Origin: an uncultured Alphaproteobacteria bacterium
Lineage (GTDB): Bacteria > Pseudomonadota > Alphaproteobacteria > JAJTHO01 > G963706365
NCBI GenBank assembly: GCA_963706365.1
Contig: OY970150.1
Span: forward strand, 1,005,864-1,069,863
Length of the DNA stretch: 64,000 nt
Direction: 5' to 3'
Made by a program: the position numbers and the translations under genes. Position 1 is the first letter of the stretch. The number at the start of each line of letters is the position of its first letter. The notes beneath the pieces were generated by a model. It worked only from the letters and a program-made list of their open reading frames with translations. It had not been told where the DNA came from and ran no database searches. Shown in pieces: positions 4,981-60,883 of this stretch.

Positions 4981-5826
4981 ATGTCAAACTTAGAACACGG
5001 CAAATTTGCTAATTCAGCTATGAAAAAAAAGCTGCTGGATAAAGAAGAAGAAATAGAGCTCGCCAGAAGCTGGCTGGAAGACAAAGACGAGGCTGCTTTA
5101 TCCAAACTGATTTTAGCCCATGGTCGATTGGTTGTAAGCAATGCCGCAAAATTCCGCTTTTATGGCTTGCAACAGGGTGATTTAATTCAGGAAGGCAATA
5201 TCGGTTTAATAGAAGCCGCCAACCGTTTCGATTATACCCGCGATATTCGTTTTTCTACTTACGCAACCTGGTGGATTCGCTCTTATATGCAAGATTTTAT
5301 TTTAAGGAATTGGTCTATTGTAAGAACAGGAACAACCTCTGCGCAAAAATCGCTATTTTTCAATTTGCGGCGTTTGCGTTCGAAAATTGAAGAAACCAAC
5401 CGCGAAGAGTTGGGTGATAAAGGACGCAAGGAGATTGCCAGGCAACTAGGTGTTAAGCTTGTTGAGGTTGAAAAAATGGAAAACCGCCTCAATATGTCCG
5501 ATCAATCCTTAAACATGAAATGTTTTGATGATTCAGATACTGATATTCAAGATTTACTAGTGGATGAAACAGCCGACCCTGAACGCCTCGCCACCAATCG
5601 TATTGATGCAGAAACCCGCCATAAATATATTAACCTGGCACTAGCCAGTTTAACCGAACGAGAGCAAACAATTGTAAAACAGCGCCGCCTTCGGGAAGAT
5701 GGTATCACTTTAGAAGAGCTTGGCAAAAAACTGGGAATTAGCAAAGAGCGGGTACGACAACTTGAAGCCGGTGCCTTAAATAAAATGCATGTTTTTTTAG
5801 GGGATAAATTGGGGTTATTGTGTTAG
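4981..5826 (+). CDS. rpoH: RNA polymerase sigma-32 heat-shock factor
   Basis: 281 aa. Sigma-70 region 2 ([18 protein letters not shown]...YATWWIR), RpoH box ([13 protein letters not shown]), and region 4 HTH ([21 protein letters not shown]). Confidence 0.85.
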
Positions 5827-5828
5827 GT

Positions 5829-6224
5829 TTAGTAGTTTTCCAAATTCCGAATCTTCTTCTTACCCAATAATTTCAAAGTAATATTACGCACTGCCCGCAT
5901 GGATGGATAGCAGGTTCGGGCAACGCGTTTGGATTTAAACATACTGTTTTTAAACACATTTAACAGCCCTTTGTTGGCGCCCAACTTCGCCATAATGTGC
6001 AAGGCCTCATCCCCCTGATAAAGTTGGCCGTTATATTTGAAAACCATGCCCTCATCTAAATCAATGCGGGCATCCTGAATTTCCTGCATAACGGGGTGGT
6101 CTTTTTGGGTGCGCGCATCAACGATTTCTAGCTCACCAAAAGTTTCTTTCATGCGGTAGTGTGAAGCCTCGATGCTGCATAAGGGGCATTCGCCATCATA
6201 GACAAAATAGACTGTGTTATTCAT
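5829..6224 (-). CDS. DCC-family thiol-disulfide oxidoreductase (DUF393)
   Basis: 131 aa. N-terminal VYFVYDGECPLCS motif characteristic of DCC1-like proteins. Confidence 0.65.
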   Translation of the reverse strand: MNNTVYFVYDGECPLCSIEASHYRMKETFGELEIVDARTQKDHPVMQEIQDARIDLDEGMVFKYNGQLYQGDEALHIMAKLGANKGLLNVFKNSMFKSKRVARTCYPSMRAVRNITLKLLGKKKIRNLENY

Positions 6225-6226
6225 TG

Positions 6227-7654
6227 TTAACTCCTGAAAATAGCGTTAAACGCCTGGTTGATGTTTGTATATTGGAATTGATAGCCACCGGTTTGTGTAG
6301 GCAAAACTTTCTGACCATTCGCCATTAAATCTTCACCCATTTTACCGAAAATAATTTTTACCAATAAAAGGGGCATCGGTAAAAGCGCGGGGCGGTGCAT
6401 GGCTTTGCCCAAAGCTTTGGCAAATTCTTTTTGCGGCACAGGCTGCGGGGCGGTTGCATTCACAACACCTGTCACCTGTTTATTTAAACAATGCAAGATA
6501 AGCCCGACCATATCGTCGCGGTGAATCCAAGACCACCATTGCTGGCCATCACCAATTGCCCCCCCTGCCCCACAATCATAGGGAATTAGCAGCTCTCTTA
6601 AAGCACCACCGTCTTTTTCAATAACCAGTCCAATCCGCAAAATTGTTGTGGGGATTGTAACAGCCTGAAGGTTTTCTTCCAGTTCCATACATATACGTTG
6701 AGCAAAGCTGCCATCTTGCTGCAATTGGCTATTTTCTGTGTATTCGTTGGTTGCATGCATACCGTAAATACCGATGGCAGAGGCCTGAATAAACTGATCT
6801 GGTTTATGTTCTAACCGTTCCATTAAACCGGTTAGGCCATATAACATTTGCATGCGGCTATCGCGAATTTTAAGACGTTTTTTCGCTGTCCAGCGTTTGG
6901 CAACCGGTTCACCAGCCAAATTAATGATGGCATCAATTTTTTCATGGTTATGAATATATTCCAGTGATTCAATAAAGGTAACGCGCCCTGTAAACTTGTC
7001 TCCTGCTTTTAAAATATTACGCGTTAGAACCGTTACTTCGTGCCCTTGGTTAATAAGTTCCTGGCATAGGCGTTGTCCAATAAAGCCGGTTGCGCCTGTA
7101 ACGAGGATACGTTGGTGCATTTTTTTCAGTATTGGAAATTCAAAGGTATTAACTGGCTGTGGTTTACTTAGTTTTAAACCTCTGGCTAAATCCCGAATAC
7201 CCCATGTGAAAACACCCAGGGCATACAACGTCATCACCCAAGATAAAAAACCGTAATTTACAGTAAAAAATCCGCTAGGCTGGCCTTTCCATTGCCATAA
7301 AATAGGCATAAACAGGGCAATGATGGCACCATAGTTTAGGGTTAGAATTGCATGGGTCACACGCTCGGTGGCGGGCAGTTTTCGGCTGCGATCTTCTTCA
7401 ACAAAATCCCACAATGTTATCAAAACTTCTGTTAAAATAATGGCTGCAAATACCCAGGCCAGCGCACCGTGCCAATGAAACCAGCCAAAACTGATGAATA
7501 CCACGGCGTAAAACATATTACGTACGCCATGTAACAACATCTCCTTTGCGGCTGTTTTACGCCAAGGCAACTTTTCTATTAATTCATGGTGATAAAACAT
7601 GTCAAAGGCTCCCAAAAGCCCTTGCACGGTTAAAAATATAAGAATAGCTTCCAT
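6227..7654 (-). CDS. Membrane-anchored NAD-dependent epimerase/dehydratase family protein (TIGR01777/YfcH-like, DUF1731 C-terminus)
   Basis: 475 aa. An N-terminal ~170-aa multi-TM domain is fused to a Rossmann domain (ILVTGATGFIGQRLCQELINQGHEVTVLTRN). The start codon overlaps the stop of the upstream gene at 7654 (ATGA). Confidence 0.7.
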   Translation of the reverse strand: MEAILIFLTVQGLLGAFDMFYHHELIEKLPWRKTAAKEMLLHGVRNMFYAVVFISFGWFHWHGALAWVFAAIILTEVLITLWDFVEEDRSRKLPATERVTHAILTLNYGAIIALFMPILWQWKGQPSGFFTVNYGFLSWVMTLYALGVFTWGIRDLARGLKLSKPQPVNTFEFPILKKMHQRILVTGATGFIGQRLCQELINQGHEVTVLTRNILKAGDKFTGRVTFIESLEYIHNHEKIDAIINLAGEPVAKRWTAKKRLKIRDSRMQMLYGLTGLMERLEHKPDQFIQASAIGIYGMHATNEYTENSQLQQDGSFAQRICMELEENLQAVTIPTTILRIGLVIEKDGGALRELLIPYDCGAGGAIGDGQQWWSWIHRDDMVGLILHCLNKQVTGVVNATAPQPVPQKEFAKALGKAMHRPALLPMPLLLVKIIFGKMGEDLMANGQKVLPTQTGGYQFQYTNINQAFNAIFRS

Positions 7655-8779: not shown

Positions 8780-8894
8780 CAGGATTATAGAAAACCCATT
8801 GACCAAGCCATTATAATCCATCATAAAGATGCCGTTACTTTTACCCCTGCGGGAGAATCGTTTACGATACCGAAGGCGCAACCGCCCTGGAAAC

Positions 8895-9012
8895 GCTCAG
8901 GTCACCGGACTGTAGGGTAATGTAGCCTCTGGAAAGTGGTTTACCACGCCGAAGAAGTCAATCTTTCAGGCCGTTTAATAGCGAAAGACAGAGAGGGCAT
9001 AAACGATTAGGA
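8895..9012 (+). promoter_or_regulatory. Candidate glycine riboswitch (gcvT leader)
   Basis: Leader of the gcvT operon contains CTCTGGAAAG...CACGCCGAAGAAGTCAA...CTTTCAGGCC...GACAGAGAGG, resembling the conserved glycine aptamer elements (CUCUGGAGAG / CGCCGAAGGAGCAA / CUCAGGCAAAAGGACAG). Not folded computationally. Confidence 0.45.
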
Positions 9013-9017
9013 GATTT

Positions 9018-10114
9018 ATGTCAAAACTACTACCGCTGCACGATATACATCTTAGCCTAGGTGCGAAAATGGTGCCGTTTGCCGGCTATGAAATGCCCAT
9101 TCAATACAAAGACGGCATTATGCAGGAACATTTACACACGCGGGAAGAAGCCTCCGTTTTTGATGTTTCCCATATGGGGCAAGCTTTGCTAATTGGGGAA
9201 GGCTGCCGATAAATATCTGGAAACCCTGGTACCAGGTGACATTCAAAATCTTGAACTTAACTGTATGCGCTATACAGTTCTATTGAATGTACAAGGCGGC
9301 ATCATTGACGATTTAATGGTGACACGCCGCATTCACAACAATGAACCTTGTTTATTCCTGGTTTTTAATGCCGCACGCGTAGAACATGATTTTGCGGCCA
9401 TTGGGGATAACCTGCCAGGGCATTTAACCCTGCGCCCGATGCCGCAACATGCTTTACTTGCGGTGCAGGGCCCCAGGGCAGAAGCCGCTGTAGCCGCTTT
9501 GCTGCCCGGATGCGGCGCATTGCATTTTATGCATGGTATGGACATTGAATATAAAGGCGTGCCTGTTTATGTTAGTCGTTCCGGTTATACCGGTGAGGAC
9601 GGCTTTGAAATTTCTATTCCCAGCCGGGCGGCAGAACGTTTTTTACATGATTTAGTGGATACAGAACGCGCCAAACCGGCTGGCCTTGGTGCCAGAGATA
9701 GCCTGCGTTTAGAAGCAGGTCTTTGTTTATATGGCCATGATCTTAGCGAAGAAACCACCCCTGTTGAGGCCAGTATAGGCTGGGTTATCAACAAAGGGCG
9801 CGAACAAAACTATGCGGGTGCTGCGCGTATTCAGGATCAGCAAGAAAAATGGTGCCCCACGTAAATTAACGGCCTTTACTGTACAAGGCCGTGCCCCGGT
9901 AAGGGAAGGCGCTGAAATTTTTCTAGGGCTTGAAAAAGTGGGCGAAATTACCAGCGGTGGCTTTTCTCCCACCCTGCAAAAACCTATATGCATGGGGTAT
10001 GTCAGTAAAAAAGCCAATGCCTATACGGCAAAAGTACGCGGTAAAGAAATTGATTTAATTGTAACAAAATTACCGTTTGTTGAACATCGGTACAAAAAGG
10101 AAATTAAGGCCTAA
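9018..10114 (+). CDS. gcvT: Glycine cleavage system T protein (aminomethyltransferase), reading frame broken twice
   Basis: Three consecutive ORFs (9018..9212, 9193..9864, 9812..10114) in frames 3, 1 and 2 together give a contiguous GcvT: ...[11 protein letters not shown] | [11 protein letters not shown]...[11 protein letters not shown] | [22 protein letters not shown]... The shifts are at ttGGGGaagg (~9200) and caagAAAAAtgg (~9850). Confidence 0.85.
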
Positions 10115-10133
10115 GTGGCATCTGGAAAATACT

Positions 10134-10502
10134 ATGACTAAAAAATATACAAAAGAACATGAATGGCTGCAAGATAATGGCGATGGCTCGTATACCATTG
10201 GTATTACGGAGCATGCACAATCACAACTAGGTGATGTTGTGTATGTTGAGCTGCCTGAAATTGGTGCGGCATTTGAAGCCACCGACGAAGCAGCCACAGT
10301 AGAATCTGTTAAGGCCGCATCCGAAGTATATGCCCCTATCAGTGGCGAAATTACCGCCATCAATGAGGCGCTAAACGACAACCCTGTTTTAGTGAACGAA
10401 GCCGCAGAAACTGATGGCTGGTTTTTTAAGATAAAACCAAGTGATGCCGCACAGCTTGATGCCTTAATGACAGAAGACGAATACAAAGAACTGATTGGAT
10501 AA
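10134..10502 (+). CDS. gcvH: Glycine cleavage system H protein (lipoyl carrier)
   Basis: 122 aa from the ATG at 10134 (the ORF-track start at 10077 is upstream of the likely start). Lipoyl-lysine motif [17 protein letters not shown]. Confidence 0.9.
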
Positions 10503-10552
10503 AAACAAGCTTTTGTACTTACAAACCTGTACCCTTAATACCCGATAAAATT

Positions 10553-11863
10553 ATGCGTTTCTTACCCCATACCGAAAACCAGCGCAATGAAATGCGCGAA
10601 GCCGTTGGCATTCATCGCACTAAAGAGCTTTTTGTTGATGTCCCCAATGGTGCCAAGCTGTATATTGAAAAAACTGGCTTATCTAAAACAATGCCGGAAT
10701 TCGAAGTTGATCGCTATTTCCAGCAGTTAGCCGCTAAAAATAAATCCGATATGCCCTTTTTTATTGGCGGTGGCGTTTATAAACATCATGTTCCGGCCAC
10801 TGTGGATTATATTATTCAGCGTGGTGAATTTTTAACTTCCTACACCCCTTATCAACCGGAAGTATCGCAAGGTACTTTACAAGTGCTGTTTGAATTTCAA
10901 ACCCAAGTGGCGATGATAACCGGCATGGATGTGGCTAATGCCTCCCTGTACGATGGCTCCACAGCAGCGGTTGAAGCGCTGATGATGGCTAATCGAGTCA
11001 CAAAACGAAAAAAGGCTATCGTTTTAGAAAGCGTACATCCCCATTACAGGGAAGTGATGAACACCTATGCTGGCATGGTTGGCTTTGATGTTGAAACCGT
11101 GCAGCAACTACCAGAAACTATTGATAAGGATATATCCTGCGTTATTGTTCAGTATCCAAACTTTTTTGGCAGTATTGAAGACTATCAAACACTGGCCGAT
11201 ACCTGCCATGCAAATGGTGCTTTGCTTATTGCAGTGGTAACAGAAATTGTTGCATTAGGTGCACTAACACCACCTGGTGAGTGGGGGGCTGATATTGTGG
11301 CAGCAGAAGGCCAGTCTATTGGCGTGCCGATGGGGTTTGGAGGCCCGCATATTGGCTTGTTTGCCTGCAAGCAAAAATATATTAGGCAAATTCCTGGCCG
11401 CCTATGTGGTGAAACCGTTGATAGAGACGGCAAGCGTGGTTATGTTCTTACGCTTAATACACGCGAACAACATATTCGCCGCGATAAAGCCACCAGCAAC
11501 ATTTGCACCAATGCCGGCCTATGCGCCCTGGCTTTTTCGGTGCATTTATCACTGTTAGGCAACCAAGGTTATACGCATTTAGCGCATCTGAACCATGCAA
11601 AGGCCGTACAGCTTTCTGAAATGCTAGGCCGTATTGAAGGCGTAAAAATACTCAATAAAAACTTTTTCAATGAATTTACAATTGAATTACCCAAGCCCGC
11701 GGCCAATGTTTTAAACGCTATGCAACAACATGGTATGCTTGCGGGGCTTGATGCAGGTAAATGGTATCAAGGTCGTGAAAACCAGTTAATTATTGCCGTT
11801 ACAGAACTGGTGAAAGATGCAGAAATGGAACAATTTTCCACTGTTCTGCAAAGTGTTTTATAG
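10553..11863 (+). CDS. gcvPA: Glycine dehydrogenase (decarboxylating) subunit 1
   Basis: 436 aa with the typical P-protein N-terminal-half signature (SYTPYQPEVSQGTLQVLFEFQTQVAMITGMDVANASLYDG...). No gcvPB follows; a palindromic repeat element and a secretin gene follow instead. Confidence 0.9.
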   Translation: MRFLPHTENQRNEMREAVGIHRTKELFVDVPNGAKLYIEKTGLSKTMPEFEVDRYFQQLAAKNKSDMPFFIGGGVYKHHVPATVDYIIQRGEFLTSYTPYQPEVSQGTLQVLFEFQTQVAMITGMDVANASLYDGSTAAVEALMMANRVTKRKKAIVLESVHPHYREVMNTYAGMVGFDVETVQQLPETIDKDISCVIVQYPNFFGSIEDYQTLADTCHANGALLIAVVTEIVALGALTPPGEWGADIVAAEGQSIGVPMGFGGPHIGLFACKQKYIRQIPGRLCGETVDRDGKRGYVLTLNTREQHIRRDKATSNICTNAGLCALAFSVHLSLLGNQGYTHLAHLNHAKAVQLSEMLGRIEGVKILNKNFFNEFTIELPKPAANVLNAMQQHGMLAGLDAGKWYQGRENQLIIAVTELVKDAEMEQFSTVLQSVL

Positions 11864-11987
11864 TGCTTCCAAAATAAATCCGTGCGGAGGCGAGAGCAAG
11901 TAAAATTGAGCGCCGTGTATGCTTCATACATAAGCGAAATTTTGCGCCGCTCAGAGACCCTCACGGGTTTATTTTGGAAGTACTATA
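11859..11987. repeat. ~128-bp palindromic MITE/RPE-like element, copy 1
   Basis: Terminal inverted repeats TATAGTGCTTCCAAAATAAATCCGTG ... CACGGGTTTATTTTGGAAGTACTATA with an internal imperfect palindrome (GAGGCGAGAGC...GCTC.GAGACCCTC). Overlaps the gcvPA stop codon. Near-identical copies at 34305..34433 and 59020..59148. Confidence 0.8.
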
Positions 11988-12057: not shown

Positions 12058-13818
12058 ATGATGGGTTGCGATATTTCTTTTGCCAGGCTTTTAGCCAGTG
12101 TCAGTATATGCTTGCTGCTAAGCAGTTGCGAGTATTATAACAAACGCCTGAATCCTAATATCTATGATTCTGACACAGGTCTTAGCCGTGAAGAATACAA
12201 AGATGCCATTACTCAAAAACAGGCAAAATCCCTGGCTAGCCGTAATGAAGCCGCTATCCCGCCGATGCACCCGATTACTTTTATTCCTCCAATTAACAAC
12301 CTGCCAGAAACAAAACGAGTGTCTATTTCCGTCACCCAGGATATACCGTTAAAAGAAGTTTTGTTTGAACTTAGCCGAAAATCTGGCCTAAATTTTAAGC
12401 TGGATTCCAATATTGAAGGCGGCATCAACTTTACCGCGTATAACGAACCTTTCATCAAGGTGATTGAAGGCATTACACGCACCGCCGGTTTACGCTATCG
12501 TTTTGAGGGCAATTTTCTAAAAATTGAACAAGACACGCCTTATTTTATTAACTATCAAGTCAACTTCTTAAACTTATTGCGCCGCGGCAGCAGCCAAACC
12601 TCTATTTCTACTGATGTGTTCTCTGGCTCCTTTGGGCAAGAAGGTGGCGGCAGCGCTGCAGATAACGGCTCTAATAGCCTGGTTGAATCGACTAGTGATG
12701 CTGATTTCTGGCTAGTAGTGGAATCTAATATTGCTAAAATGCTGAACGATGCAAGCGGCGGGGCAGAAGACCCGTTGTCAACTGTGCTGGGCATTCCCGG
12801 GCAGGAAGCTGTGCGCGAACGTGCCGGTATCAGCACCACCAGCCGCGTGGGTCCCTATTCCCGTATTACGAGTAACCGCCAGGCTGGCCTTGTTTCTGTT
12901 TTCGCAACAGAGGGAGAACACCGACGTGTGCTAGATTTCTTAAATACACTACGAGAACGCGTAAATTCCCAGGTAACAGTAGAAGCCAAAATCCTGGAAG
13001 TTACTTTAAACGATGATTATCGCAATGGTATAAACTGGCAAACCCTGTTTGATGTTGGTGCCGCCACGGTTTCCGCACGTGCACGCTTCGATTCCCCGGT
13101 GCTTAATAACCCGATTCAAAACTTTGAAGATAGCACTAATAATGACGTGGCTGTTGGTGTTAGAACCGGCGATTTTTCAGGTGTAATTAGTGCTGTGGAA
13201 AGTTTTGGTTCTACGCGCACTCTTTCCAGCCCCCGTGTAACGATCATCAATAACCAGCCTGCTATTATGAAAGTGGCGGAAAATCAGGTATTTTTCCAGC
13301 TAGAATTTGAACGCGTAGAAGGCACGCTGGATGAAGCAGACCGCACCAATACTTCCAGTAAAATTCTAACCGTACCCGTTGGCTTGGTGATGGCCTTGCA
13401 ACCGGCTATTGATAAAGCCAACCAAAAAATTATGCTGAATCTAAGGCCAACCATTTCACGCATCCAATCATTTGTGGATGATCCGGCTGTTTCTATTGCC
13501 TCTAATAACCAGGTAAAATCCAGTATTCCTGTGGTTGAGGTACGCGAAATTGATTCTGTGGTACACATGGATTCCGGCCAGGTTGTTTTAATGGGTGGGT
13601 TGATGCAAGAGCGTAGCCGCAACCAGGATCAAGGCGTGCCGTTTATTAGTCGTATTCCCGGATTTAATTTATTATTCGGCACCCGCGAACAGGAAAAAGA
13701 AGTCGTTGAACTTGTTATTTTATTAAAAGCGGAAATTGTCGATAATGGCGGTGTGACCGATCATGACCGTGCCTTGTACGAGCGCTTTATCAATGATCCT
13801 CGCCCTATAGAATTTTAG
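12058..13818 (+). CDS. Secretin-family outer-membrane lipoprotein (T4P/T2SS-type secretin, MshL/PilN/BfpB-like)
   Basis: 586 aa. Lipobox LLLSSC. Secretin N-domain-like region. C-terminal secretin domain (STRTLSSPRVTIINNQPAIMKVAENQVFF...VVLMGGLMQERSRNQDQGVPFISRIPGFNLLFG). Confidence 0.7.
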   Translation: MMGCDISFARLLASVSICLLLSSCEYYNKRLNPNIYDSDTGLSREEYKDAITQKQAKSLASRNEAAIPPMHPITFIPPINNLPETKRVSISVTQDIPLKEVLFELSRKSGLNFKLDSNIEGGINFTAYNEPFIKVIEGITRTAGLRYRFEGNFLKIEQDTPYFINYQVNFLNLLRRGSSQTSISTDVFSGSFGQEGGGSAADNGSNSLVESTSDADFWLVVESNIAKMLNDASGGAEDPLSTVLGIPGQEAVRERAGISTTSRVGPYSRITSNRQAGLVSVFATEGEHRRVLDFLNTLRERVNSQVTVEAKILEVTLNDDYRNGINWQTLFDVGAATVSARARFDSPVLNNPIQNFEDSTNNDVAVGVRTGDFSGVISAVESFGSTRTLSSPRVTIINNQPAIMKVAENQVFFQLEFERVEGTLDEADRTNTSSKILTVPVGLVMALQPAIDKANQKIMLNLRPTISRIQSFVDDPAVSIASNNQVKSSIPVVEVREIDSVVHMDSGQVVLMGGLMQERSRNQDQGVPFISRIPGFNLLFGTREQEKEVVELVILLKAEIVDNGGVTDHDRALYERFINDPRPIEF

Positions 13819-13819
13819 G

Positions 13820-15145
13820 CTATTTTAAAAAATCCGGAATTGCATTTAATGCCTCTTGATCTTCACAAAAACCATTAGTAGCAGCTGTTTTAGACTGTTT
13901 AATCGCTGGTTTAGTATCTGGCGATTTACCCTGTACTGGCTTACTATTTGCTGGTTTTTTTTCTCTTTTCTCAGCCGCTGGCTTTTCTGGCTCTCCAATA
14001 TTCAGTGTTGCGATAGTCGCACTAGTATAGGATTTTATCTCGTTCCATTGCTCCTGTTGCAAGTCTGATACCAGGGTATAAGCCTTGCCCAGGGCACCGG
14101 CACGGCCGGTTCGGCCCACACGGTGCACATATTCGTCCTGATTATTGGGCACGTCATAATTTATGACAACAGGCAAACCCTGTACGTGTAAACCACGTGC
14201 GGCAACATCACTGGCAACCAATAAATCTATCTTTGATTCTTTAAAATCAGCCAGGGTCTGCATCCGTTCACTTTGGCTAAAATCACCATGTATGGCAGCC
14301 GCGTTATAGCCCTTTTGCTTTAACATTTTTGCAATTGCATCAACCTCAACCTTGCGATTGGCAAATATAATAGCCTGCACAATTCGCTGATGTTGCATCA
14401 TTTCCAGCAAAAATGCCTGTTTCGCTTTTTGCACTTTTGGGCAGACTACTTCAAATTGCTCGATATTTTCGGCGGTAAGATTTTTTGGTGTAACGGTAAT
14501 TTCCTTGGCTAAATGTAAGAAACGTTCTGTCAGGCTACGAATAGCATCGGGCATGGTGGCGGAAAACATAACAGTTTGTCTCACCGGTGGCAGCAAACGA
14601 ATAATATTTTCGATATCAGGGATGAACCCCATATCCAGCATACGATCTGCTTCGTCAACGACCAGCATTTCAATGGCCTGCAGAATAACCTTACCTTTTT
14701 CAAGATGTTCCAGCAATCGGCCAGGCGTGGCGATAATTACGTCAACACCCCTGGCCAATGCCTTTTCCTGTAAAACAGGCGACATACCACCAATTAATAG
14801 CGCGGTGGTAAAATGATGATATTTGCCATAAGCTTTGAAATTCTCTTCCACTTGCAAGGCAATTTCGCGGGTTGGCGCCAACACCAAACCACGCGGCATC
14901 ATCGCACGGGAACGCCCTTTTAGAAACCGCTCCATCATTGGCAAAGTAAAACCAGCGGTCTTTCCTGTACCGGTTTGGGCAATGGCCACCAGGTCTTGGC
15001 CAGCCATAATAACAGGCATGCTAATGGCCTGAATTTCAGTAGGGATTTCATACCCCCTATCCTTCAATGCCTTGAGGGTCAAAGGGTGTAAGTTAAGGTC
15101 TTTAAAGGTAGTTTCAGTCACAGTCTTCCATAGAACATATCGCAA
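13820..15145 (-). CDS. DEAD-box ATP-dependent RNA helicase (RhlE-like)
   Basis: 441 aa. Q-motif, Walker A AQTGTGKT, DEAD (VVDEADRM), SAT, HRVGRTGRAG. Lys/Pro-rich C-terminal tail. Confidence 0.9.
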   Translation of the reverse strand: MRYVLWKTVTETTFKDLNLHPLTLKALKDRGYEIPTEIQAISMPVIMAGQDLVAIAQTGTGKTAGFTLPMMERFLKGRSRAMMPRGLVLAPTREIALQVEENFKAYGKYHHFTTALLIGGMSPVLQEKALARGVDVIIATPGRLLEHLEKGKVILQAIEMLVVDEADRMLDMGFIPDIENIIRLLPPVRQTVMFSATMPDAIRSLTERFLHLAKEITVTPKNLTAENIEQFEVVCPKVQKAKQAFLLEMMQHQRIVQAIIFANRKVEVDAIAKMLKQKGYNAAAIHGDFSQSERMQTLADFKESKIDLLVASDVAARGLHVQGLPVVINYDVPNNQDEYVHRVGRTGRAGALGKAYTLVSDLQQEQWNEIKSYTSATIATLNIGEPEKPAAEKREKKPANSKPVQGKSPDTKPAIKQSKTAATNGFCEDQEALNAIPDFLK

Positions 15146-15197
15146 AAATATATAAAACTAAAGATTTTATATATTTTAATGTCTTATTACATTAATT

Positions 15198-15788
15198 ATG
15201 ACAGTAATGTTAAATTTTTTAAAATCAGTGGCTGATCTGGATGGTTTGCCCGCCGCTAATAAACCTGAAGTGGCTTTTGCCGGGCGTTCTAATGTAGGAA
15301 AATCAAGCTTATTGAATACTTTAGCGGGTCAAAAAAAACTGGCCAAAACCTCGGGTCGGCCAGGTTGCACGCAACTATTAAATTTTTTTGAACCAGAAAA
15401 TAGTAGCTATTATTTAGTGGATTTACCCGGTTATGGCTATGCCAAGGCACCCAAACATGAAATTGAACGCTGGACAACCCTGACCAATTATTATTTACAG
15501 GGTCGTGCTAATTTGCGCCGGGTATTTTTGTTAATTGACAGCCGACATGGTATTAAGGAAAACGACAAGCCACTAATGGAGATGCTGAATAGTGCCGCCG
15601 TTCCCTGGCAAATTATTTTAACCAAAACCGATAAAATAAAAACGCCCGCCATTGATAAGATGATAAAACAGGCGGAATCTTATTGCCTAAAGCAGCCTGC
15701 GGCTATCAACAATGTTTTATCCAGCAGTAGTGAAAAGCGATTAGGCACAGAAGAAATATGGAAAGCTATTGCAGAATCAATAACTTAG
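15198..15788 (+). CDS. engB: Ribosome biogenesis GTP-binding protein YsxC/YihA
   Basis: 196 aa. G1 GRSNVGKSSLLN, G3 DLPGYG, G4 TKTD. Confidence 0.85.
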   Translation: MTVMLNFLKSVADLDGLPAANKPEVAFAGRSNVGKSSLLNTLAGQKKLAKTSGRPGCTQLLNFFEPENSSYYLVDLPGYGYAKAPKHEIERWTTLTNYYLQGRANLRRVFLLIDSRHGIKENDKPLMEMLNSAAVPWQIILTKTDKIKTPAIDKMIKQAESYCLKQPAAINNVLSSSSEKRLGTEEIWKAIAESIT

Positions 15789-15802
15789 GGATATAACGCG
15801 CC

Positions 15803-16792
15803 ATGAAATTATCAATGGATAGAAACCTGGCTCTTGAAACTGTCAGGGTAACTGAATGGGCTGCATTGGCCTCCGCGCGCTGGATGGGGCGTGGTGATGA
15901 GAAGGCTGCCGACCAGGCTGCTGTTGATGCCATGCGTACCGCCTTAAACGGCCTGTCTATTCAGGGCACCATTGTTATTGGAGAAGGCGAACGCGATGAA
16001 GCGCCCATGCTTTATATTGGTGAAGAAGTGGGCAAAGATGATGCGTTTAAAGAGCATTACCCCCATGTTGATATTGCGCTTGATCCTCTAGAAGGCACCA
16101 CGATCACGGCACATGGCCTGCCTAATGCCATGACGGTTATTGCCATTGCGGAACAAGGCGGTTTTTTAAATGCGCCGGATGTTTATATGCAAAAAATTGC
16201 AGTTGGTGCCGGTTTACCAGCAGATTTGGTGGATTTGGATTTGAGTGCCACCGAAAACATTACCCGCCTGGCACAAGCAACTGGCAAGCGCACCGAAGAT
16301 GTGGTGGTTTGTATTCTAGACCGCCCACGCCATAAAGATTTAGTACAGGAAATTCGTGATTTAGGCACTCGTATTCACTTTATTGCAGATGGCGATGTTA
16401 GTGCGGTTATTGCCTGTTCTGAGCCTAATAGCGGTATCGATATGTATATTGGCACGGGTGGCGCACCGGAAGGTGTGTTGGCAGCCGCAGCCCTGCAGTG
16501 CATTGGCGGTTTTATGCAAGGGCGTTTATTATTTCGTAACGATGATGAAAAGCAGCGTGCGGCAAAGTATGGCATCACCGATCTTGATCATAAATATAGC
16601 CTTGATGAATTAGCGCATGGCAATGTGATGTTTGCCGCCACAGGCGTAACAGATGGAACCCTGCTAAGGGGCGTTAAGATGACAGCCTCGGGCGCAAAAA
16701 CACAATCTGTTGTGATGCGTTCCAATTCTGGCACAGTGCGCAAAATTGAAGCCACCCACGATTTTCGCAGAAAGCCATTTGATACGGTTTAA
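15803..16792 (+). CDS. glpX: Fructose-1,6-bisphosphatase class II (GlpX)
   Basis: 329 aa collinear with GlpX (TEWAALASARWMGRGDEKAADQAAVDAMR...DPLEGT...GTGGAPEGV). Confidence 0.85.
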   Translation: MKLSMDRNLALETVRVTEWAALASARWMGRGDEKAADQAAVDAMRTALNGLSIQGTIVIGEGERDEAPMLYIGEEVGKDDAFKEHYPHVDIALDPLEGTTITAHGLPNAMTVIAIAEQGGFLNAPDVYMQKIAVGAGLPADLVDLDLSATENITRLAQATGKRTEDVVVCILDRPRHKDLVQEIRDLGTRIHFIADGDVSAVIACSEPNSGIDMYIGTGGAPEGVLAAAALQCIGGFMQGRLLFRNDDEKQRAAKYGITDLDHKYSLDELAHGNVMFAATGVTDGTLLRGVKMTASGAKTQSVVMRSNSGTVRKIEATHDFRRKPFDTV

Positions 16793-16852
16793 GAAATTTT
16801 TAGCATAAATCCTTAACAACAGTTTAATAAACTGTTGTTATAGTTGGGAAAT

Positions 16853-19800
16853 ATGCAAAAAATATCTTCACCGGCGGCCGGACAACAAAAGCAGGTTTAT
16901 GCAGAACCCGGCCAAACCATTGAACTTGATATAGATATTAGCCAAGCCCAGGTTGACATTCTGGGCAGTGATATGATTTTGACCTTACCAAATGGTGGGC
17001 AAATTATTTTATCTGGCATGGCGGTTTCCCTGTTTGAACAAGATGCACCGAACTTAATTGTAGAGGGGCAAACTATTGATCCTAATATTTTATTAGGCCG
17101 CGTTGGATTGGTGCAAAATGTATCGGGTAAAGATGTCGCAATTTTAACCAGCATGCAAACCCCTGCAACAGAAAAAGCCGCGCAGGAAGTTTTGCAACAA
17201 AAATTGCAAAACATCGAAGTAAAGTTACAGGAAGCAGAACAGGCAGCAGAAATTGCGCAGAAGGAAGCCGATTTTAACGAACAATTTAAATTTATGGAGC
17301 CGCCAAAGGAAATTGTTGGCGAAAATATGGTCAGTGCTTCAAAAGGTACCAATGCACCGAGCAATAAAACGCTAGGGAATTTTGAACTGGGCGCGAAAAA
17401 AGTTTTTCAAAAATTTACCAGCAATGCAGAATCAGAAGAATCAATCCAGCAAGCCGCCCCGCCGGTTGATTTTAAACCCCCTGCGGTGCAATCTGAATTA
17501 ATTGTAGAACAAAGTGATGGCGGAACAATTGCTTTTGATACAAAGGTACAAGCGTTGCAAATATCAGCTAGCCAATCCCTTGCGGATAACGGCACCCTAA
17601 CCTTTTTGGGGGGAAGCGGTAGCGAGGCCGCAACCATTGATGGCAGTGCCTTAACACAAATTCAGGCAGAATTTATTGATACCAGCCGCCATAATCGTGA
17701 TGTTGTAATCGTGGCTGATAACAACACTTTTATTGATCAAAATTTGCTATCTAGAGTCATTGAATACGACCCCACTGTGCCAGATGGTTTTGATTTAACG
17801 TCACTGGTTATTAAAGGTATTCCCAACAACTATAATCTTGTGGGTTATACAGCCGATTCCAGCGGTAACTATCGCTTTGATGTCAACACATTATCAGGGG
17901 ATGTAGAAAAATTTATCATTCAATACGACCCCACCGCTTTTGGTAGTGCTGATGCCAATGGTAATGTGCAAACTTTTAATATTACCTTTGATTCTATTGC
18001 GCAAAGTAACGGCAGCGTTGTAGAAGCCGCCTACCCTAGTTTAACGGATTCAATCGTTGTTCCTGTGGCGGTGAAAGATGTTACGGAAAACAATTATACC
18101 TATAACGTTAATGGCGTTACAGGTTGGGTTTTTGATACAAACCCGAATGGCAATATTATTTTAACAGGCGACGGTAATGCAGATGTTACCGGCGGTTTTA
18201 CCAATGACCGTATTACGACTGGTTCCGGTAATGATATAATCAATGCCGGCAAGGGTGATGACTTTGTACGTACCAACAAAGGTGATGATATTATAAACGT
18301 TGGCACCGGTAATAATATTGTGGATGCTGGCGATGGTATTGATACGTTGACCTACAGCGACAGTAACAGCAATGTTAACGTTGACTTGATGAGCCCTGCA
18401 AACAGCGCCGGTTACATTGAATTAACTGTTGGCAGCAACCAAACTGACCAGGTGCGGGAAGTTGAAAATATTACCACTGGCGGTGGTAATGATACAGTAG
18501 CGGGTAATAATAGTAACAACACCTTAAAAACAGGTGCCGGGAATGACACCTTAACAGGCTATCTGGGGAATGATACTTTAGACGGCGGCGCGGGCAGTGA
18601 CACAGTTTCCTATGCCTATCGCGAGACCTATTCCAGCAGCGGTGTTACCGTTAACTTAAACAACAGCACCGTTAATCTTGCCAGTAATGATGTTGATACC
18701 ATTAGCAATATCGAAAACATTATCGGTACACGTTATAATGATACCCTAACAGGTAATTCGCAAAACAACACTTTTACAGCAGGCGCCGGTAATGACACCA
18801 TCGATTTAGGCACGGGTAATGACAGTGTTGATGGTGGCGATGGTATTGATCATCTAAAATTTACACAGCAAACCAGTGGTGTTACTTTAAACTTGCAACA
18901 GGGATCTGGTCAATCAGCCACTGGCGACACATTGACGGTACGTAACATAGAAGAAGTAACTGGCTCAAGTTTCAATGACACTTTAACAGGTGATAATCTA
19001 AACAATACTTTTTACAGCAGTGCTGGCAACGATGCTTATAATGGCAGTGGTGGCACCGATACTTTAAGCTATCAAACAGGCACAGCCGCCATCCAAGCTG
19101 ATTTTTCTGCCGGTACCGTTACAAAAAATAATGGTAATGATACCTTTTCAAATATTGAAACTGTCAAAGCAACCAATTTAAATGATACGCTTATTGGTGG
19201 TGGATCAGTTACTAATATTGATGGTGCTGGCGGCATAGACACTTTGTCTTATCAAACCCAAACAGATGCTGTTACAATTAATTTAAAAGATGGCACCACC
19301 ACGGGTGCTGTTACTCAATCTTTTAGCAACATAGAAAACGCCACGGGCGGTTCTGGCAATGATACTTTGCTAGGAAACAGTGGGAATAATATTCTGGCGG
19401 GTGGCGCTGGTATTGATACGGTTAGTTATGCCAATGCAACAAATGCGGTAAATGCCAGCTTACTGAGCAACAGTTCAACAGGATATGGTAATGATACATT
19501 TTCAAGTATGGAAATATTAATTGGCTCAAACTTTAGTGACCAATTAGAAGGAAATGCCGGCAATGACGAAGTCATTGGTGGCGGCGGTAACGATACTATT
19601 TTCTCTACCACCGGTAATGATATTATTGATGGTGGAACGGGTTACAACACCATATCCTATGTCAATTCTACCGATACGATTACCAGTATTGATTATACAA
19701 CGGTTGCAAGCACAGGCTATGTAACCATTAACTTTGTTTCTGGAAAATATGACCTGGTGCGTAATGTTGAACTTTATAAAGGTTCAGCCGGTAACGACGA

Positions 19801-22800
19801 AGTTGTTGGCGGCGGTGGCAGTGGTGCGGGTTTAGGAACAAATCCGGGATCTGGCGGCGGGTCAGGAGGTGGCAGTGGCGGAGGCGTTGTAACCATTGAT
19901 GGAGGAGATGGTACGGATAAAATAATTTTTGCTGCTGAAACCGCTGTTGTTGTTGTTGATTTACAAAACGGTACAGCCACAGGTTCCTTTGGTACTTATA
20001 ACTTTACTAGTTTTGAAAGTGTTGTCGGTGGTGTGAATAATGACACCCTAATTGGTAGTACAGCGGACAATATTATTGAAGCTAATGACGGAGACGATAC
20101 TGTAATTGGCACCACAGGTAATGATACCTTGGATGGAGGCAATGGCAATGATATCGTGGACTATAGTAATTTAACCAGCGGTATAACAGCTTCTTCTACC
20201 AGTGTTACGGGTAGTGGCTTTACCGATACTTTAAGTAATTTCGAAACCGTTATTACCACAGATTATGACGATGTTATTAACGATGATAGCGCCAGTACTG
20301 TTTATGAAACAGGCGATGGCAATGATACTATTAATGCCAATTCCGGCACCGACAGCTTTGATGGTGGAACCGGCACGAATAAGCTAAGTTACACAAGCCA
20401 TAGTAACAGTAGTGCAGGCATTAACGCAGATATGTCTGTGCGCGACGGTAACAGCTTTTTCAACATCACTATAGGTGGCGAAACAGACAAAGCAAAAAAT
20501 ATCCAGATTCTTGAAGGTAGCACAGGCAACGATATTTTAACCGGCGATAATAACGCCAATACCTTGCTGGGTGCCGGTGGTGATGACATTCTAAATGGTG
20601 GTGGCGGTAATGATACGCTGGATGGTGGCGATGGTAATGATACTGTAAGTTTTTCCGGTGCCTCTAGTGGCGTTAACCTTAACATGAACATTGTTGACGC
20701 TAATGGTTTTGCCAATGCAACAGTGGGCAGCGAAACAGATAAATTAAAAAGTATCGAAATTATTAATGGCTCCAGTTTTGATGATATTATCACCGGTGGC
20801 AGCAGTAATGATACAATATCAGGGGGTTCTGGTAATGATATTCTGGATGGCGGTGCAGGCCTAGATACAATTAACGGCGGTGGTGGCTATGATACAGCAA
20901 CGTATGTATCCCTATCACAAGGTGTTAGTGTTGCTGGCAGTGTGGTTACCGATAATGACGGTAATGTGGAAACATTAATTAATATTAATGCCATCAGGGG
21001 AACGAACGCTGGCGATACATTTATTGGCACCAGTGGTAACGATATTTATGGTGGCCTAGGTGGCAACGATACTTTCACCGCAACCAATGGTAATGATAGC
21101 TATGATGGTGGCGCCGATACAGATACTGTTACTTATGTTAACAGCAGCGAAAACCTGAACATTAGTTTACGTACAGGTTCTGCAACCGGCACACTATTGG
21201 GAACACATACCTTAACAAGCATTGAAAATGTTACGGGTGGTTCTGGTAATGATACAATAGAGGGCGGTGTTGGCGCCAATATTTTAAATGGTGGTGCGGG
21301 CAGCAATACATTGAGTTACGCCAATGCCATTGCTGGTGTTAGTATTGATTTAACAGCCAATACAGCCATTGATGATGGCGGTGCCACAGATACCATCAGT
21401 AATTTTACCAGTTTAAATGCTTCTGGCTTTAATGACACCTTAAAAGGCAGCACCGGTAGTGATACCCTAAATGCCGGCGCCGGTAATGATACGATAATTT
21501 CTAGCACAGGTAACGACACCATTGACGGTGAAGCCGGTAACGATAGCCTGTCTTATGCAGCCACATCAACGGCTATTAATGTTAACTTATCTAGCGTAAA
21601 CGGCAGTGGTTTTGCCACTATTACGCAGAATACCAAAACAGATTTGGTGAAAAACATTCAAACATTTACCGGTTCCACCGCGGGTGACACTTTTATAGGT
21701 TCCAGCACCGCTGATATTTTCTATGGTGGTAGTGGTGCTGATACCTTCAGTGGCCGGGGTGGTAATGATATATTTGAAGGGGGCAATGATACAGATACGG
21801 CTGATTACGCTTATTCTGCTAATGCCATTACGGTTGATCTAACCAATCTGGTTGGTGGCTATGGGCAAGTTAGCTTTGCTTCCAGCAGCGAGGTGGACAG
21901 CCTTAATAGTATAGAAAATATTATCGGTACTGCCGGTAATGATACGTTTACCGGTGGCGCTGGTGCTAATAACATTAATGGTGGTGGCGGTAACGATACT
22001 TTTTATGGCGATGCTGGCAACGATTCCCTTGATGGGAACACTGGTAGTGATACTGTTGACTTTAGTGCCAATAGCACAGCTGTAAATGTTACATTAAACA
22101 GCCAGTCTGCCACCGCACAAACCATTACTTCTGGTTATGGCACCGACAGTATTCGCTATATTGAAAATATTACCACAGGCGGCGGTAATGATACCATTGA
22201 TACGCGCAATGATGCCGGTAATAACACCATTGTTACTAATGGTGGCAATGATACCATTTATGCCGGTGCGGGCAGCGATAGCTTAGATGCCGGTAGTGGC
22301 ACGAACACTTTACGTTTTGACGGTATGGCCAGCGCTGTGGTTCTGGATTTATCCACTTTGAATGGCAGTGGTTTTGCCACTGCAACTTCTGGCGCAAATA
22401 GCAGCCTGGTAAAAGGTTTTGGCACCGTTTACGGCAGTTCCAATGGCGATAATATTACCGGCACAAGTGGCAATGATATACTTTATGGCCAGGATGGTTC
22501 CGACACGCTTACAGGTGGCGCAGGCGATGATCTGATTATTGACCGCAATACAACCTATGCCACCAATAACACCAACATTATTAACGCCGGTGACGGTAAT
22601 GATACGGTAGAGGCCTACGTTAATGGCAGCACCATAGACGGTGGCAATCAAACCGATATTTTAACCTATAATGCTGGTAGTGGCACAAGCTCTAACCTAA
22701 CAGTGAACCTTACAGCAGAAACAGTTACAAATGGTGTTTATACCGACAATATCTCTAATTTTGAAGAAATTCGAACCAGCAATGGTAATGACAGTTTCAT

Positions 22801-23647
22801 TGGTGATGCCAATGGTCAATCATTCTATGGGAATGCCGGTAACGATACATTCCGGGGCTTAGGAGGAAATGACTTCTTCTATGGCGGTAATGATACAGAT
22901 ACCGTTAGCTATATAGACGCAGGCAGCGGTGTTACAGCTAATTTAACAACCAATACTGCCAGCGATGGTGATGGCGGAACCGATACATTTAACAGCATAG
23001 AATCATTAACGGGTTCTAACTATGATGATTTGTTAACGGGCAATGTGGGGGGCAACACGTTGTCTGGCGGAACCGGTAATGATACCCTTGTAGGCACCGC
23101 CGGGAATGATACCCTGAATGGTGGAACAGGCACCGATGATACAATAGATTATACTGCCCAAACCAGTGCGGTTAATATAGATCTAGCCACCAACAACGCC
23201 AGTGGTGCAGGCATTGATACCGATACCTTCTTGAATATTGATCGTATTAATACAGGTTCTGGCAACGATAGTTTAACAGGTGACGCGGCAACATTATTCG
23301 CCAGCACCCTAAAATTAAACTTTGCCACAGGAAACGACACTGTTACAGCCACCAGTGGTACTGTTGGTACAGATGCGGGGGTTCTTGATACGTTATACGA
23401 CAACGTGGAAACCCTAAACTTTCTTGGCGCCAATACCAACAGCGGCAACTTTGTTATTGATGGCGACGAAGTTGTTGGCCTAACAGATTCTAACAATGCC
23501 TTGCGGTTAGATGTAAACAGCTTATTCGGTTTAACCGTTAATGGCGGTAGTTATACCGTTTCATCGTCTACGACAGGCAACCATACTGTTTATGAATTTA
23601 ATACCGGTGTAACACAAGTGGCACAGTTGGACGTCTATGTTACCTAG
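16853..23647 (+). CDS. Giant RTX-repeat (hemolysin-type Ca-binding nonapeptide) secreted protein/adhesin, T1SS substrate
   Basis: About 2265 aa. No signal peptide. Dozens of GGxGNDTLxG-type nonapeptide repeats throughout, and an acidic C-terminus ending ...AQLDVYVT. The ATG at 16853 is preferred over the TTG at 16844 used by the ORF track. Immediately followed by T1SS export genes. Confidence 0.85.
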   Translation: MQKISSPAAGQQKQVYAEPGQTIELDIDISQAQVDILGSDMILTLPNGGQIILSGMAVSLFEQDAPNLIVEGQTIDPNILLGRVGLVQNVSGKDVAILTSMQTPATEKAAQEVLQQKLQNIEVKLQEAEQAAEIAQKEADFNEQFKFMEPPKEIVGENMVSASKGTNAPSNKTLGNFELGAKKVFQKFTSNAESEESIQQAAPPVDFKPPAVQSELIVEQSDGGTIAFDTKVQALQISASQSLADNGTLTFLGGSGSEAATIDGSALTQIQAEFIDTSRHNRDVVIVADNNTFIDQNLLSRVIEYDPTVPDGFDLTSLVIKGIPNNYNLVGYTADSSGNYRFDVNTLSGDVEKFIIQYDPTAFGSADANGNVQTFNITFDSIAQSNGSVVEAAYPSLTDSIVVPVAVKDVTENNYTYNVNGVTGWVFDTNPNGNIILTGDGNADVTGGFTNDRITTGSGNDIINAGKGDDFVRTNKGDDIINVGTGNNIVDAGDGIDTLTYSDSNSNVNVDLMSPANSAGYIELTVGSNQTDQVREVENITTGGGNDTVAGNNSNNTLKTGAGNDTLTGYLGNDTLDGGAGSDTVSYAYRETYSSSGVTVNLNNSTVNLASNDVDTISNIENIIGTRYNDTLTGNSQNNTFTAGAGNDTIDLGTGNDSVDGGDGIDHLKFTQQTSGVTLNLQQGSGQSATGDTLTVRNIEEVTGSSFNDTLTGDNLNNTFYSSAGNDAYNGSGGTDTLSYQTGTAAIQADFSAGTVTKNNGNDTFSNIETVKATNLNDTLIGGGSVTNIDGAGGIDTLSYQTQTDAVTINLKDGTTTGAVTQSFSNIENATGGSGNDTLLGNSGNNILAGGAGIDTVSYANATNAVNASLLSNSSTGYGNDTFSSMEILIGSNFSDQLEGNAGNDEVIGGGGNDTIFSTTGNDIIDGGTGYNTISYVNSTDTITSIDYTTVASTGYVTINFVSGKYDLVRNVELYKGSAGNDEVVGGGGSGAGLGTNPGSGGGSGGGSGGGVVTIDGGDGTDKIIFAAETAVVVVDLQNGTATGSFGTYNFTSFESVVGGVNNDTLIGSTADNIIEANDGDDTVIGTTGNDTLDGGNGNDIVDYSNLTSGITASSTSVTGSGFTDTLSNFETVITTDYDDVINDDSASTVYETGDGNDTINANSGTDSFDGGTGTNKLSYTSHSNSSAGINADMSVRDGNSFFNITIGGETDKAKNIQILEGSTGNDILTGDNNANTLLGAGGDDILNGGGGNDTLDGGDGNDTVSFSGASSGVNLNMNIVDANGFANATVGSETDKLKSIEIINGSSFDDIITGGSSNDTISGGSGNDILDGGAGLDTINGGGGYDTATYVSLSQGVSVAGSVVTDNDGNVETLININAIRGTNAGDTFIGTSGNDIYGGLGGNDTFTATNGNDSYDGGADTDTVTYVNSSENLNISLRTGSATGTLLGTHTLTSIENVTGGSGNDTIEGGVGANILNGGAGSNTLSYANAIAGVSIDLTANTAIDDGGATDTISNFTSLNASGFNDTLKGSTGSDTLNAGAGNDTIISSTGNDTIDGEAGNDSLSYAATSTAINVNLSSVNGSGFATITQNTKTDLVKNIQTFTGSTAGDTFIGSSTADIFYGGSGADTFSGRGGNDIFEGGNDTDTADYAYSANAITVDLTNLVGGYGQVSFASSSEVDSLNSIENIIGTAGNDTFTGGAGANNINGGGGNDTFYGDAGNDSLDGNTGSDTVDFSANSTAVNVTLNSQSATAQTITSGYGTDSIRYIENITTGGGNDTIDTRNDAGNNTIVTNGGNDTIYAGAGSDSLDAGSGTNTLRFDGMASAVVLDLSTLNGSGFATATSGANSSLVKGFGTVYGSSNGDNITGTSGNDILYGQDGSDTLTGGAGDDLIIDRNTTYATNNTNIINAGDGNDTVEAYVNGSTIDGGNQTDILTYNAGSGTSSNLTVNLTAETVTNGVYTDNISNFEEIRTSNGNDSFIGDANGQSFYGNAGNDTFRGLGGNDFFYGGNDTDTVSYIDAGSGVTANLTTNTASDGDGGTDTFNSIESLTGSNYDDLLTGNVGGNTLSGGTGNDTLVGTAGNDTLNGGTGTDDTIDYTAQTSAVNIDLATNNASGAGIDTDTFLNIDRINTGSGNDSLTGDAATLFASTLKLNFATGNDTVTATSGTVGTDAGVLDTLYDNVETLNFLGANTNSGNFVIDGDEVVGLTDSNNALRLDVNSLFGLTVNGGSYTVSSSTTGNHTVYEFNTGVTQVAQLDVYVT

Positions 23648-23719
23648 GCATATCCTGATAGCGACAGGTTTATAAAAATTTAATCTTATCGCACCATACT
23701 GCACCTTAGAGAGCGTAAA

Positions 23720-25096: not shown

Positions 25097-25097
25097 A

Positions 25098-34250: not shown

Positions 34251-34304
34251 TGTTATAATTGTTCCAGTTTTTTCATAGCATTGTTCACACAAAAGCTCGG
34301 GTTT

Positions 34305-54710: not shown

Positions 54711-54716
54711 AACCGC

Positions 54717-59148: not shown

Positions 59149-59298
59149 TTTCTGCTAGCCCCCAAGTAAACCCCTTTTCCTCGTTAAAAACATAAAGAAA
59201 ATCAACCAAACCGATAAAAAAGATAAATTTTTATTGTTTTTAAATATAAATCAGGTATTATTGTGATGTAGCGCACAATTATAATCTGATATTATTAT

Positions 59299-60849: not shown

Positions 60850-60883
60850 TTGTAGTGCTATATAACAAAGGAAATAGATAAAA

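Follow-up and report, generated by a model that had tools for sequence, protein, structure and literature searches.

A lipoprotein secretin without neighboring partner genes as the probable outer-membrane channel of a dispersed, MshL-like type IV filament machine

Introduction

To which machine does a secretin belong when none of the expected partners is encoded next to it? This question is raised by the gene at positions 12058–13818 (+) of the window, the whole 64-kb stretch of DNA (64,000 nucleotides) that was analyzed here. The gene encodes an MshL-like lipoprotein secretin and lies between a palindromic repeat element and a DEAD-box helicase gene. The first-pass annotation, which was made from the sequence alone, considered three explanations for its isolation: the gene may be a relic, its product may work with a T4SS, or it may work with an unlinked pilus system. 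The analysis described below favors the last. By our estimate, the odds are about three in four that the secretin forms the outer-membrane channel of an MshL-like type IV filament machine, related to MSHA and T4aP, and that the genes of this machine have come to lie apart in a reduced genome.

Structure of the secretin

The gene is an open reading frame that runs from ATG to stop and encodes 586 aa plus the stop. The first-pass annotation had described the product as a lipoprotein secretin of this length with a lipobox and a C-terminal secretin domain, and the profile searches bear this description out. The Pfam Secretin domain (PF00263) is matched at residues 379–562 with an E value of 5e-31 and 108 bits against a cutoff of 27.5. 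The match spans profile positions 1–169 of 169, which places the protein in the Secretin superfamily. Secretin_N_2 (PF07655) is likewise found above its cutoff at residues 166–233 (E 3.6e-6, 27.9 bits versus 23.4). STN and FecR_C are matched weakly over residues 94–156.

The N terminus, MMGCDISFARLLASVSICLLLSSC, ends in the lipobox L-S-S-C, whose cysteine is Cys24. The lipoprotein signal peptide with this lipobox, as read from the sequence, takes up positions 12058–12129 (+), and Cys24 is encoded at 12127–12129. Cys24 is invariant across the 50-sequence alignment of the secretin family, a lipobox with its cysteine is present in at least 97 of 124 homologs, and the residue is predicted to be the lipidated residue 1 of the mature protein. 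Liposecretins are characterized by a lipoprotein signal peptide with a lipobox cysteine, and by its sequence the protein is one of them.

The domain arrangement was taken from an AlphaFold2 model that was calculated with the 50-sequence alignment as input and has a mean pLDDT of 73. An N0-like periplasmic domain at residues 87–167 (12316–12558, +) is modeled at a pLDDT of about 90 with alternating strands and helices and coincides with the weak STN/FecR_C matches. Residues 84–157 align, at a sub-threshold score, to residues 155–227 of Vibrio cholerae PilQ, a region which we take to be N0. The Secretin_N_2 region (12553–12756, +) holds a disordered Gly/Ser-rich loop, residues 180–207, where the pLDDT falls below 50. 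It is followed by an N3-like ring-building domain at residues 258–317 (12829–13008, +), which again has a pLDDT of about 90 and lies inside the match to the MshL profile. The β-barrel and gate domain corresponds to the PF00263 match (13192–13743, +), and the barrel extends from residue 384 to 561 in the model. The protein ends in a conserved, family-specific C-terminal helix and motif (13759–13806, +) that is characterized by D570, Y574, D580, R582, and P583, all invariant or nearly so; the short helix itself is modeled at residues 568–577.

When the model is compared with the PDB by Foldseek, BfpB (9u5s_A) is ranked first with an E value of 2.9e-20, followed by InvG, PilQ, and GspD, and these four are matched by the barrel and gate domain. 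The structural alignment to BfpB has an identity of 15% and a TM score of 0.39–0.46. By sequence, the best match among solved structures is f1 pIV (E 2.9e-13), and none of them is a close relative. The protein could accordingly be seen as the pIV-type export channel of a filamentous phage that is integrated as a prophage, and the PHROG pIV family is indeed matched as well, with an E value of 1.1e-30. However, the pIV matches reflect generic secretin homology, and neither Zot/pI-like nor other phage genes are adjacent. The length of 586 aa, the lipobox, and the N-terminal domains are common to a chromosomal, pilus-linked family. A phage channel is therefore an extremely improbable explanation.

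Genomic neighborhood

Upstream of the secretin gene lies gcvPA (10553–11863). The palindromic element (11859–11987, strand undefined) separates the stop of gcvPA from the start codon of the secretin gene and forms the upstream junction. Its arms of 29 nt are 90% complementary in an inverted-repeat search. Its RNA folds into a hairpin of very high stability (−63.8 kcal/mol, z = −8.9), and Rfam has no match to it. Three copies of this dispersed, approximately 131-bp repeat are present in the window (11859–11987, about 34301–34430, and about 59020–59149) and share 92–93% identity; the element belongs outside the pilus machine. According to the first-pass annotation, it replaces the expected gcvPB. 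The gene is indeed missing after gcvPA and the element is present, but the replacement is an interpretation of these two facts, and the element is dispersed over three sites. Within the 70 bp from the repeat element to the start codon of the secretin, a convincing sigma-70 promoter could not be identified. The downstream flank is, as annotated, the DEAD-box helicase gene at 13820–15145 (−), which is convergent with the secretin gene.

A near-identical strain is represented by an independent assembly, the Logan contig L001 (run ERR12040027), which begins inside the element at 11923. From this position on, the DNA of the secretin gene has zero nucleotide differences between the window and L001, and 10 SNPs are found in the next 2.3 kb beyond the gene.

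Partner genes were searched for in several ways. Pilin, ATPase, and platform genes are all absent from the 64-kb window. All nine proteins from the operon of the closest relative (L004) were compared with the window by tblastn and recover the secretin alone (52% identity), along with a generic match between the ATPase and VirB11. Profile HMMs for eight accessory families were built from the proteins of four related loci and represent the ~520–550-, 207-, and ~200-aa proteins and the post-secretin, TPR, and pilin-like proteins. In the window, in L001, and in the contigs L006 and L008, these profiles detect no accessory component. The only profile with significant matches is that of the ABC ATPase, which picks up two generic proteins of this type in the window, one at 54716 (−) and the other at 26990 (+). 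The prepilin motif G-F-[ST]-x-x-E is absent from the ORFs of the window, L001, L006, and L008. By the tblastn, profile, and motif searches of the window, the secretin is the local orphan that it had been called.

Pfam annotation of most ORFs of at least 100 aa identifies the other genes of the window as housekeeping genes, an RTX/T1SS cluster, and a pair of VirB10 (59299–60849) and VirB11 (60884–62035) genes. The presence of this pair in the same window is the point in favor of a secretin that serves a VirB-type T4SS, as had been suggested. However, VirB10 and VirB11 are about 46 kb away from the secretin, vir genes are linked to none of the homologous secretin loci that were examined, and the visible partners of these homologs are type IV filament genes. 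To our knowledge, VirB7/9/10 form the outer-membrane core of T4SSs without a secretin. A role in the T4SS is highly improbable.

Placement within the secretin families

The best NCBIfam model for the secretin is MshL (TIGR02519). Its score of 223.8 bits is below the cutoff of 250.2, and the match covers the full 290-position profile with residues 273–561. GspD (TIGR02517) reaches 113.1 bits against a cutoff of 351.35, and only profile positions 301–594 are matched. The scores against PilQ (83.6 bits, cutoff 284) and type IVb/PilN (TIGR02520; 68.5 bits, cutoff 287.65) are also too low, as is that against SctC, which at 67.8 bits is below the curated cutoff. Eight homologs that span the family were tested against the MshL model, and every one of them scores under 250.2, in the range of 204–227 bits. 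Since the query and all eight homologs stay below the cutoff, they seem to constitute a related family and not the MshL equivalog itself. The resemblance to MshL and the type IVb secretins that had been noted from the sequence thus stands in part: MshL is the nearest family and BfpB the best fold, but the cutoffs of MshL and PilN are both missed.

The family is large and mostly unnamed. A homolog search yields 521 proteins, two of which exceed 50% identity (51–52%). The remaining homologs have at most about 41% identity over the full length, and some have 44–50% over half of the query. The few named members found here are all from Alphaproteobacteria (Caenispirillum, Limimonas, Geminicoccaceae, and Azospirillaceae). 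Annotations within the family are inconsistent (GspD, MshL, or hypothetical) because all of its tested members fall just below the MshL cutoff; the closest homolog carries the JGI label “general secretion pathway protein D.”

Loci of related secretins

The gene order around related secretins varies between complete operons and isolated genes. In L004 (52%), the operon is fully visible, and the secretin is its first gene. It is accompanied by genes for two prepilin-like proteins (236 and 331 aa) with a TPR protein (249 aa) between them, an ATPase with MshEN and T2SSE domains (562 aa), a T2SSF platform protein (365 aa), and three unknown proteins. L002 (51%) opens as L004 does until the contig ends. 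In the more distant L007 (34–35%), genes for the ATPase, the platform, proteins of 551, 207, and 198 aa, an ABC ATPase, a TPR protein, a prepilin peptidase, and two PilT-like ATPases precede the secretin, which is followed by genes for proteins of 252 and 245 aa, AraC, and a pilin. L005 (37%) has a related arrangement; like L007, it is a larger cluster with PilT-like ATPases, a prepilin peptidase, and pilins.

Other loci are incomplete. The homolog P0069 (41% over 54% of the query) is encoded together with pilin-like genes, and an ATPase gene is absent within 10 kb. In L006 (39%, 44% GC), the secretin is alone among housekeeping genes, and only TPR and Sel1 genes are close by. A Rickettsiales MAG (L009) harbors the ATPase, the platform, the 520-, 207-, and 213-aa proteins, and the ABC module; its locus, which extends about 8 kb from the ATPase gene in both directions, has no secretin. 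Wherever an ATPase and a platform gene are both visible in the relatives examined, they are neighbors. From these loci it follows that the secretins of this family are parts of type IV filament machines and that unlinked members recur among them.

Unlinked partners in the same genome

The contig that is on record for the secretin (P0001) has a length of 1,867,446 bp. A search with the L004 ATPase finds, at rank 10, the protein P0134 (565 aa, 46% identity, 99% coverage), whose contig is also listed with exactly 1,867,446 bp; this length is the sole tie of P0134 to the genome of the secretin. P0134 passes the model for the MshE-related c-di-GMP-binding motif with 62.1 bits (cutoff 38). Its sequence keeps the Walker A motif (GPTGSGKTT), Walker B, and the tetracysteine motif.

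The platform protein of L004 was used as a query in the same way. A word-indexed search was too insensitive, with 77 matches and none from the secretin genome. An exhaustive HMMER search of 1.84 billion representatives finds P0324 at rank 4 (351 aa, E 4.8e-66). A cluster look-up assigns P0324 to a contig of 1,867,446 bp as well and to Logan run ERR12040027, which also holds the secretin. The gene is located on L008, a 9.4-kb contig from the near-identical strain, where it stands alone between pgk and ksgA; no other filament genes were found on L008. A lipoprotein encoded beside ksgA on this contig, p488, was considered as an assembly component and rejected, as it has no similarity to any component.

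From these records, the contig that bears the secretin appears to carry the P0134 ATPase and the P0324 platform as well. Secretin, platform, and ATPase are encoded at three separate loci, and even the ATPase–platform pair is split here. As P0324 is alone on L008, genes of the machine are dispersed as a rule in this genome, and the secretin looks orphaned because the motor ATPase and the platform sit at other loci. The proposal of an unlinked pilus system is supported both by the filament loci of the homologs and by P0134 and P0324, which are apparently on the same contig.

The same machine could also export proteins in the manner of a T2SS, or take up DNA, instead of forming an adhesive pilus, in which case the secretin would have the same role and only the substrate would be another. 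Several comparisons point in this direction: the JGI name of the closest secretin homolog, weak matches of the L004 pilin-like proteins to GspG and GspH, the best scores of both platform proteins against GspF, a slightly better score of the L004 ATPase against GspE than against PilB, and the lack of a visible PilT-like ATPase in L004. However, the GspD, GspE, and GspF scores are all far under the curated cutoffs, P0134 scores higher against PilB (502) than against GspE (485.5), and equivalents of GspC, K, L, and M were not recognized. Additionally, the PilT-like ATPases of the more distant L005 and L007 are typical of retractile pili. An exporter or uptake device is on balance unlikely.

Conservation of the secretin and its partners

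The remaining alternative is a non-functional secretin: genome reduction would have destroyed a pilus operon, and this gene would be the last of it that still looks intact, as no disabling mutation has reached it yet. The setting of the gene speaks for such a relic. The genome is reduced and rich in repeats and apparent pseudogenes, and apparent decay affects gcvT, corA, hlyD, and rph, so that the system may be in a late stage of loss. Among the neighbors of the secretin, gcvT carries two frameshifts despite an intact glycine riboswitch upstream, and gcvPB is missing; corA and hlyD are both split in the window, as is rph in L008. The secretin is isolated from all the partners that are adjacent to it in its closest homologs, P0324 is unusually divergent, and no gene for a pilin, a prepilin peptidase, or a PilM/N/O-like protein was recognized in the part of this genome that was searched, the window and two Logan contigs.

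Decay was assessed by the alignment columns that are at least 80% conserved, and the secretin was compared with 49 homologs. It matches 95 of 104 such columns (0.913), which equals the family mean and corresponds to rank 21 of 50 from the lowest, and it keeps all 32 of 32 invariant columns. For P0134, the matched share of conserved columns is 0.861, which is low within its set: the mean there is 0.952 and the minimum 0.836. P0324, at 0.647, is the lowest of the 40 proteins compared, and its nearest relative reaches 0.706; eight of its 18 mismatches result from an N-terminal shortening that is also found in the nearest relative. In our reading, the divergence probably means that an intact system evolves fast and not that it decays, with the strong divergence of P0324 and the still putative pilins as the main reservations.

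The relic proposed in the first-pass annotation is disfavored by the normal conservation of the secretin. Its ORF is full length, as are the ATPase and platform ORFs that are assigned to the same replicon, and no substitution separates the two strains in the covered part of the gene. Between the gene and its nearest homologs (52% identity), synonymous sites are probably saturated. A relic is quite unlikely, and the secretin is better explained as the channel of the dispersed filament machine.

Proposed mechanism

In the machine proposed here, the secretin would be exported by Sec and lipidated at Cys24. Subsequently, the Lol pathway would carry it to the outer membrane, so that it would be self-piloted like other liposecretins, as proposed for HxcQ in the account given in PMC3230066. 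There it would oligomerize into a gated multimeric barrel that is built from about residues 379–562. The N0-like and N3-like rings would extend into the periplasm and meet an inner-membrane assembly unit, their presumed partner, which would consist of two unlinked components, the platform P0324 and the MshE-type ATPase P0134, the latter probably regulated by c-di-GMP. A pilin fiber would then be extruded through the secretin pore under the control of c-di-GMP. The fiber may serve in host or surface adhesion, DNA uptake, or secretion.

Significance

The locus may be an example of an experimentally uncharacterized class of type IV filaments that is widespread in Alphaproteobacteria and that is split into single-gene loci yet intact in a reduced, probably host-associated genome. 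The parts of this class would be the MshL-like liposecretin with its conserved C-terminal motif, the MshE-type c-di-GMP ATPase, a platform protein that is shortened in the nearest relatives, and a recurrent module of about 520–550-, 207-, and 200-aa proteins with an ABC ATPase. The class and its parts list are put forward together, as a tentative suggestion with the odds against it. If it is true, a class that is split and yet kept would suggest that selection maintains it for contact with a host, and it would depart from the single-locus organization reported for MSH. For annotation, the locus teaches that a secretin without neighbors in a reduced genome should not be equated with a relic or a stand-alone system before the whole replicon has been checked.

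Comparison with known systems

Beyond its dispersal and its family, the locus holds no mechanistic surprise, and the secretin is an ordinary representative of a known type. With GspD and PilQ, the secretin shares the barrel and the N3-like domain (Foldseek E values of 1e-11 to 1e-17). The query is shorter than these proteins, has a single N0-like plus N3-like arrangement instead of the N0-N1-N2-N3 series of GspD, and lacks a detectable AMIN domain. Another difference is that it would be lipidated instead of depending on a separate pilotin.

BfpB from the type IVb pilus of EPEC is the closest structural match at the level of the general fold only, and the partner genes of the query are MshE/T4a-like, not Bfp-like. 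BfpB and HxcQ of the Pseudomonas Hxc T2SS are self-piloted liposecretins, with which the query shares an N-terminal lipobox and cysteine that are conserved in its family. According to the summary in PMC3230066, which cites Viarre 2009, HxcQ is lipidated, and the Lol system is proposed to take it straight to the outer membrane.

The mannose-sensitive hemagglutinin (MSHA) pilus of Vibrio and Shewanella is another of the closest known systems, and the present machine would work like one of the MSH/T4a type. MshL is the best-scoring named family for the secretin, the partner ATPase P0134 has the MshE-type c-di-GMP-binding N-terminal motif, and a TPR gene adjoins the secretin in the loci of relatives, as MshN does in MSHA loci; MshN is homologous to TadD (PMC6668835). 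The mandatory MSH genes are mshA, E, G, L, and M (PMC6668835). Compared with this definition (Denise et al. 2019), an MshE-like (P0134), an MshG-like (P0324), and an MshL-like gene are present; the prepilin-motif scan and the profile searches of the window and the available Logan contigs revealed neither MshA nor MshM, and MshM is not seen in L004 either. MSH was earlier described only in Gammaproteobacteria, until Denise et al. (2019, PMC6668835) extended its range to Chrysiogenetes and Epsilonproteobacteria in their survey, whereas the named members of the family described here are alphaproteobacterial. Another difference concerns the organization of the genes: MSH systems are reported to be almost exclusively encoded at a single locus, with no peptidase in it (PMC6668835), and the genome analyzed here probably holds an MshL-like machine whose core genes are dispersed over separate loci.

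Apparent gene decay and repeat elements

The glycine-cleavage operon (8840-11863 of the window) appears to be decaying. Its glycine riboswitch is intact (8840-8922, 55.3 bits) and lies 5′ of gcvT, which carries two frameshifts and is spread over three reading frames across about 8990-10114. Both gcvH and gcvPA look undamaged, and there is no gcvPB. Three further genes are apparently split: corA (two ORFs, 1003-1978) and the HlyD-family adaptor gene of a type I secretion system (T1SS; two ORFs, 28656-29877) in the window, and the RNase PH gene at 625-1351 of L008, an independently assembled 9.4-kb Logan contig. The split genes suggest that pseudogenes, putative ones in the case of the window, have truly formed in this reduced genome (1.87 Mb), and not that the assemblies are in error.

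A palindromic, MITE-like repeat of ∼131 bp is present in three copies in the window (92-93% identity), has the terminal inverted repeats TATAGTGCTTCCAAAATAAATCCGTG, and gave no match in Rfam. Copy 1 (11859-11987) supplies or overlaps the stop codon of gcvPA, and a short-read assembly is interrupted within it. Copy 2 (about 34301-34430) overlaps the 5′ end of a HAD-hydrolase ORF (33414-34373, minus strand), and copy 3 (about 59020-59149) is located between nusG and virB10. An IS-type DDE transposase (49201-49959, DDE_Tnp_1 and DUF772) is consistent with a genome that harbors mobile repeats.

Strain variation

Between the window and L001, the Logan contig of a near-identical strain, 10 differences were found, all of which lie within the helicase, engB, and glpX genes (14111-16150); the secretin gene has none. 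Six of the 10 are clustered in a 151-bp stretch of glpX (16000-16150), a pattern suggestive of a small patch of recombination.

Secretion and filament genes

The RTX/T1SS cluster (16844-29877) starts with the gene of a giant RTX protein of 2267 aa, in which the RTX nonapeptide-repeat model matched over 20 stretches. The cluster continues with a 458-aa protein of unknown function, then an OmpA-like protein, TolC and an ABC exporter, up to the split HlyD. The opposite strand encodes a 1121-aa protein (35774-39139) that combines eight matched Calx-beta stretches with an RTX repeat.

The adjoining VirB10 and VirB11 genes (59299-62035) are preceded on their 5′ side by nusG and repeat copy 3 and followed, up to the window end, by short unannotated ORFs only. 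VirB10 carries an additional N-terminal Ig-like/DUF1573-like domain besides its TrbI domain. The T4SS genes, too, may be dispersed in the genome.

In L008, one gene downstream from the isolated platform gene, a 488-aa predicted lipoprotein (5448-6914, signal LLTGC) is encoded that matched nothing in Pfam and resembled none of the filament components tested.

In relatives, the secretin family occurs with a recurrent module that consists of an MshE-type ATPase, T2SSF, unknown proteins of ∼520-550, ∼207, and ∼200 aa, and an ABC-type ATPase (L007 1-5134; L005 18610-21749; Rickettsiales locus L009 8001-14538). It is unusual for a type IV filament locus to include an ABC ATPase, and we came across no description of this arrangement.
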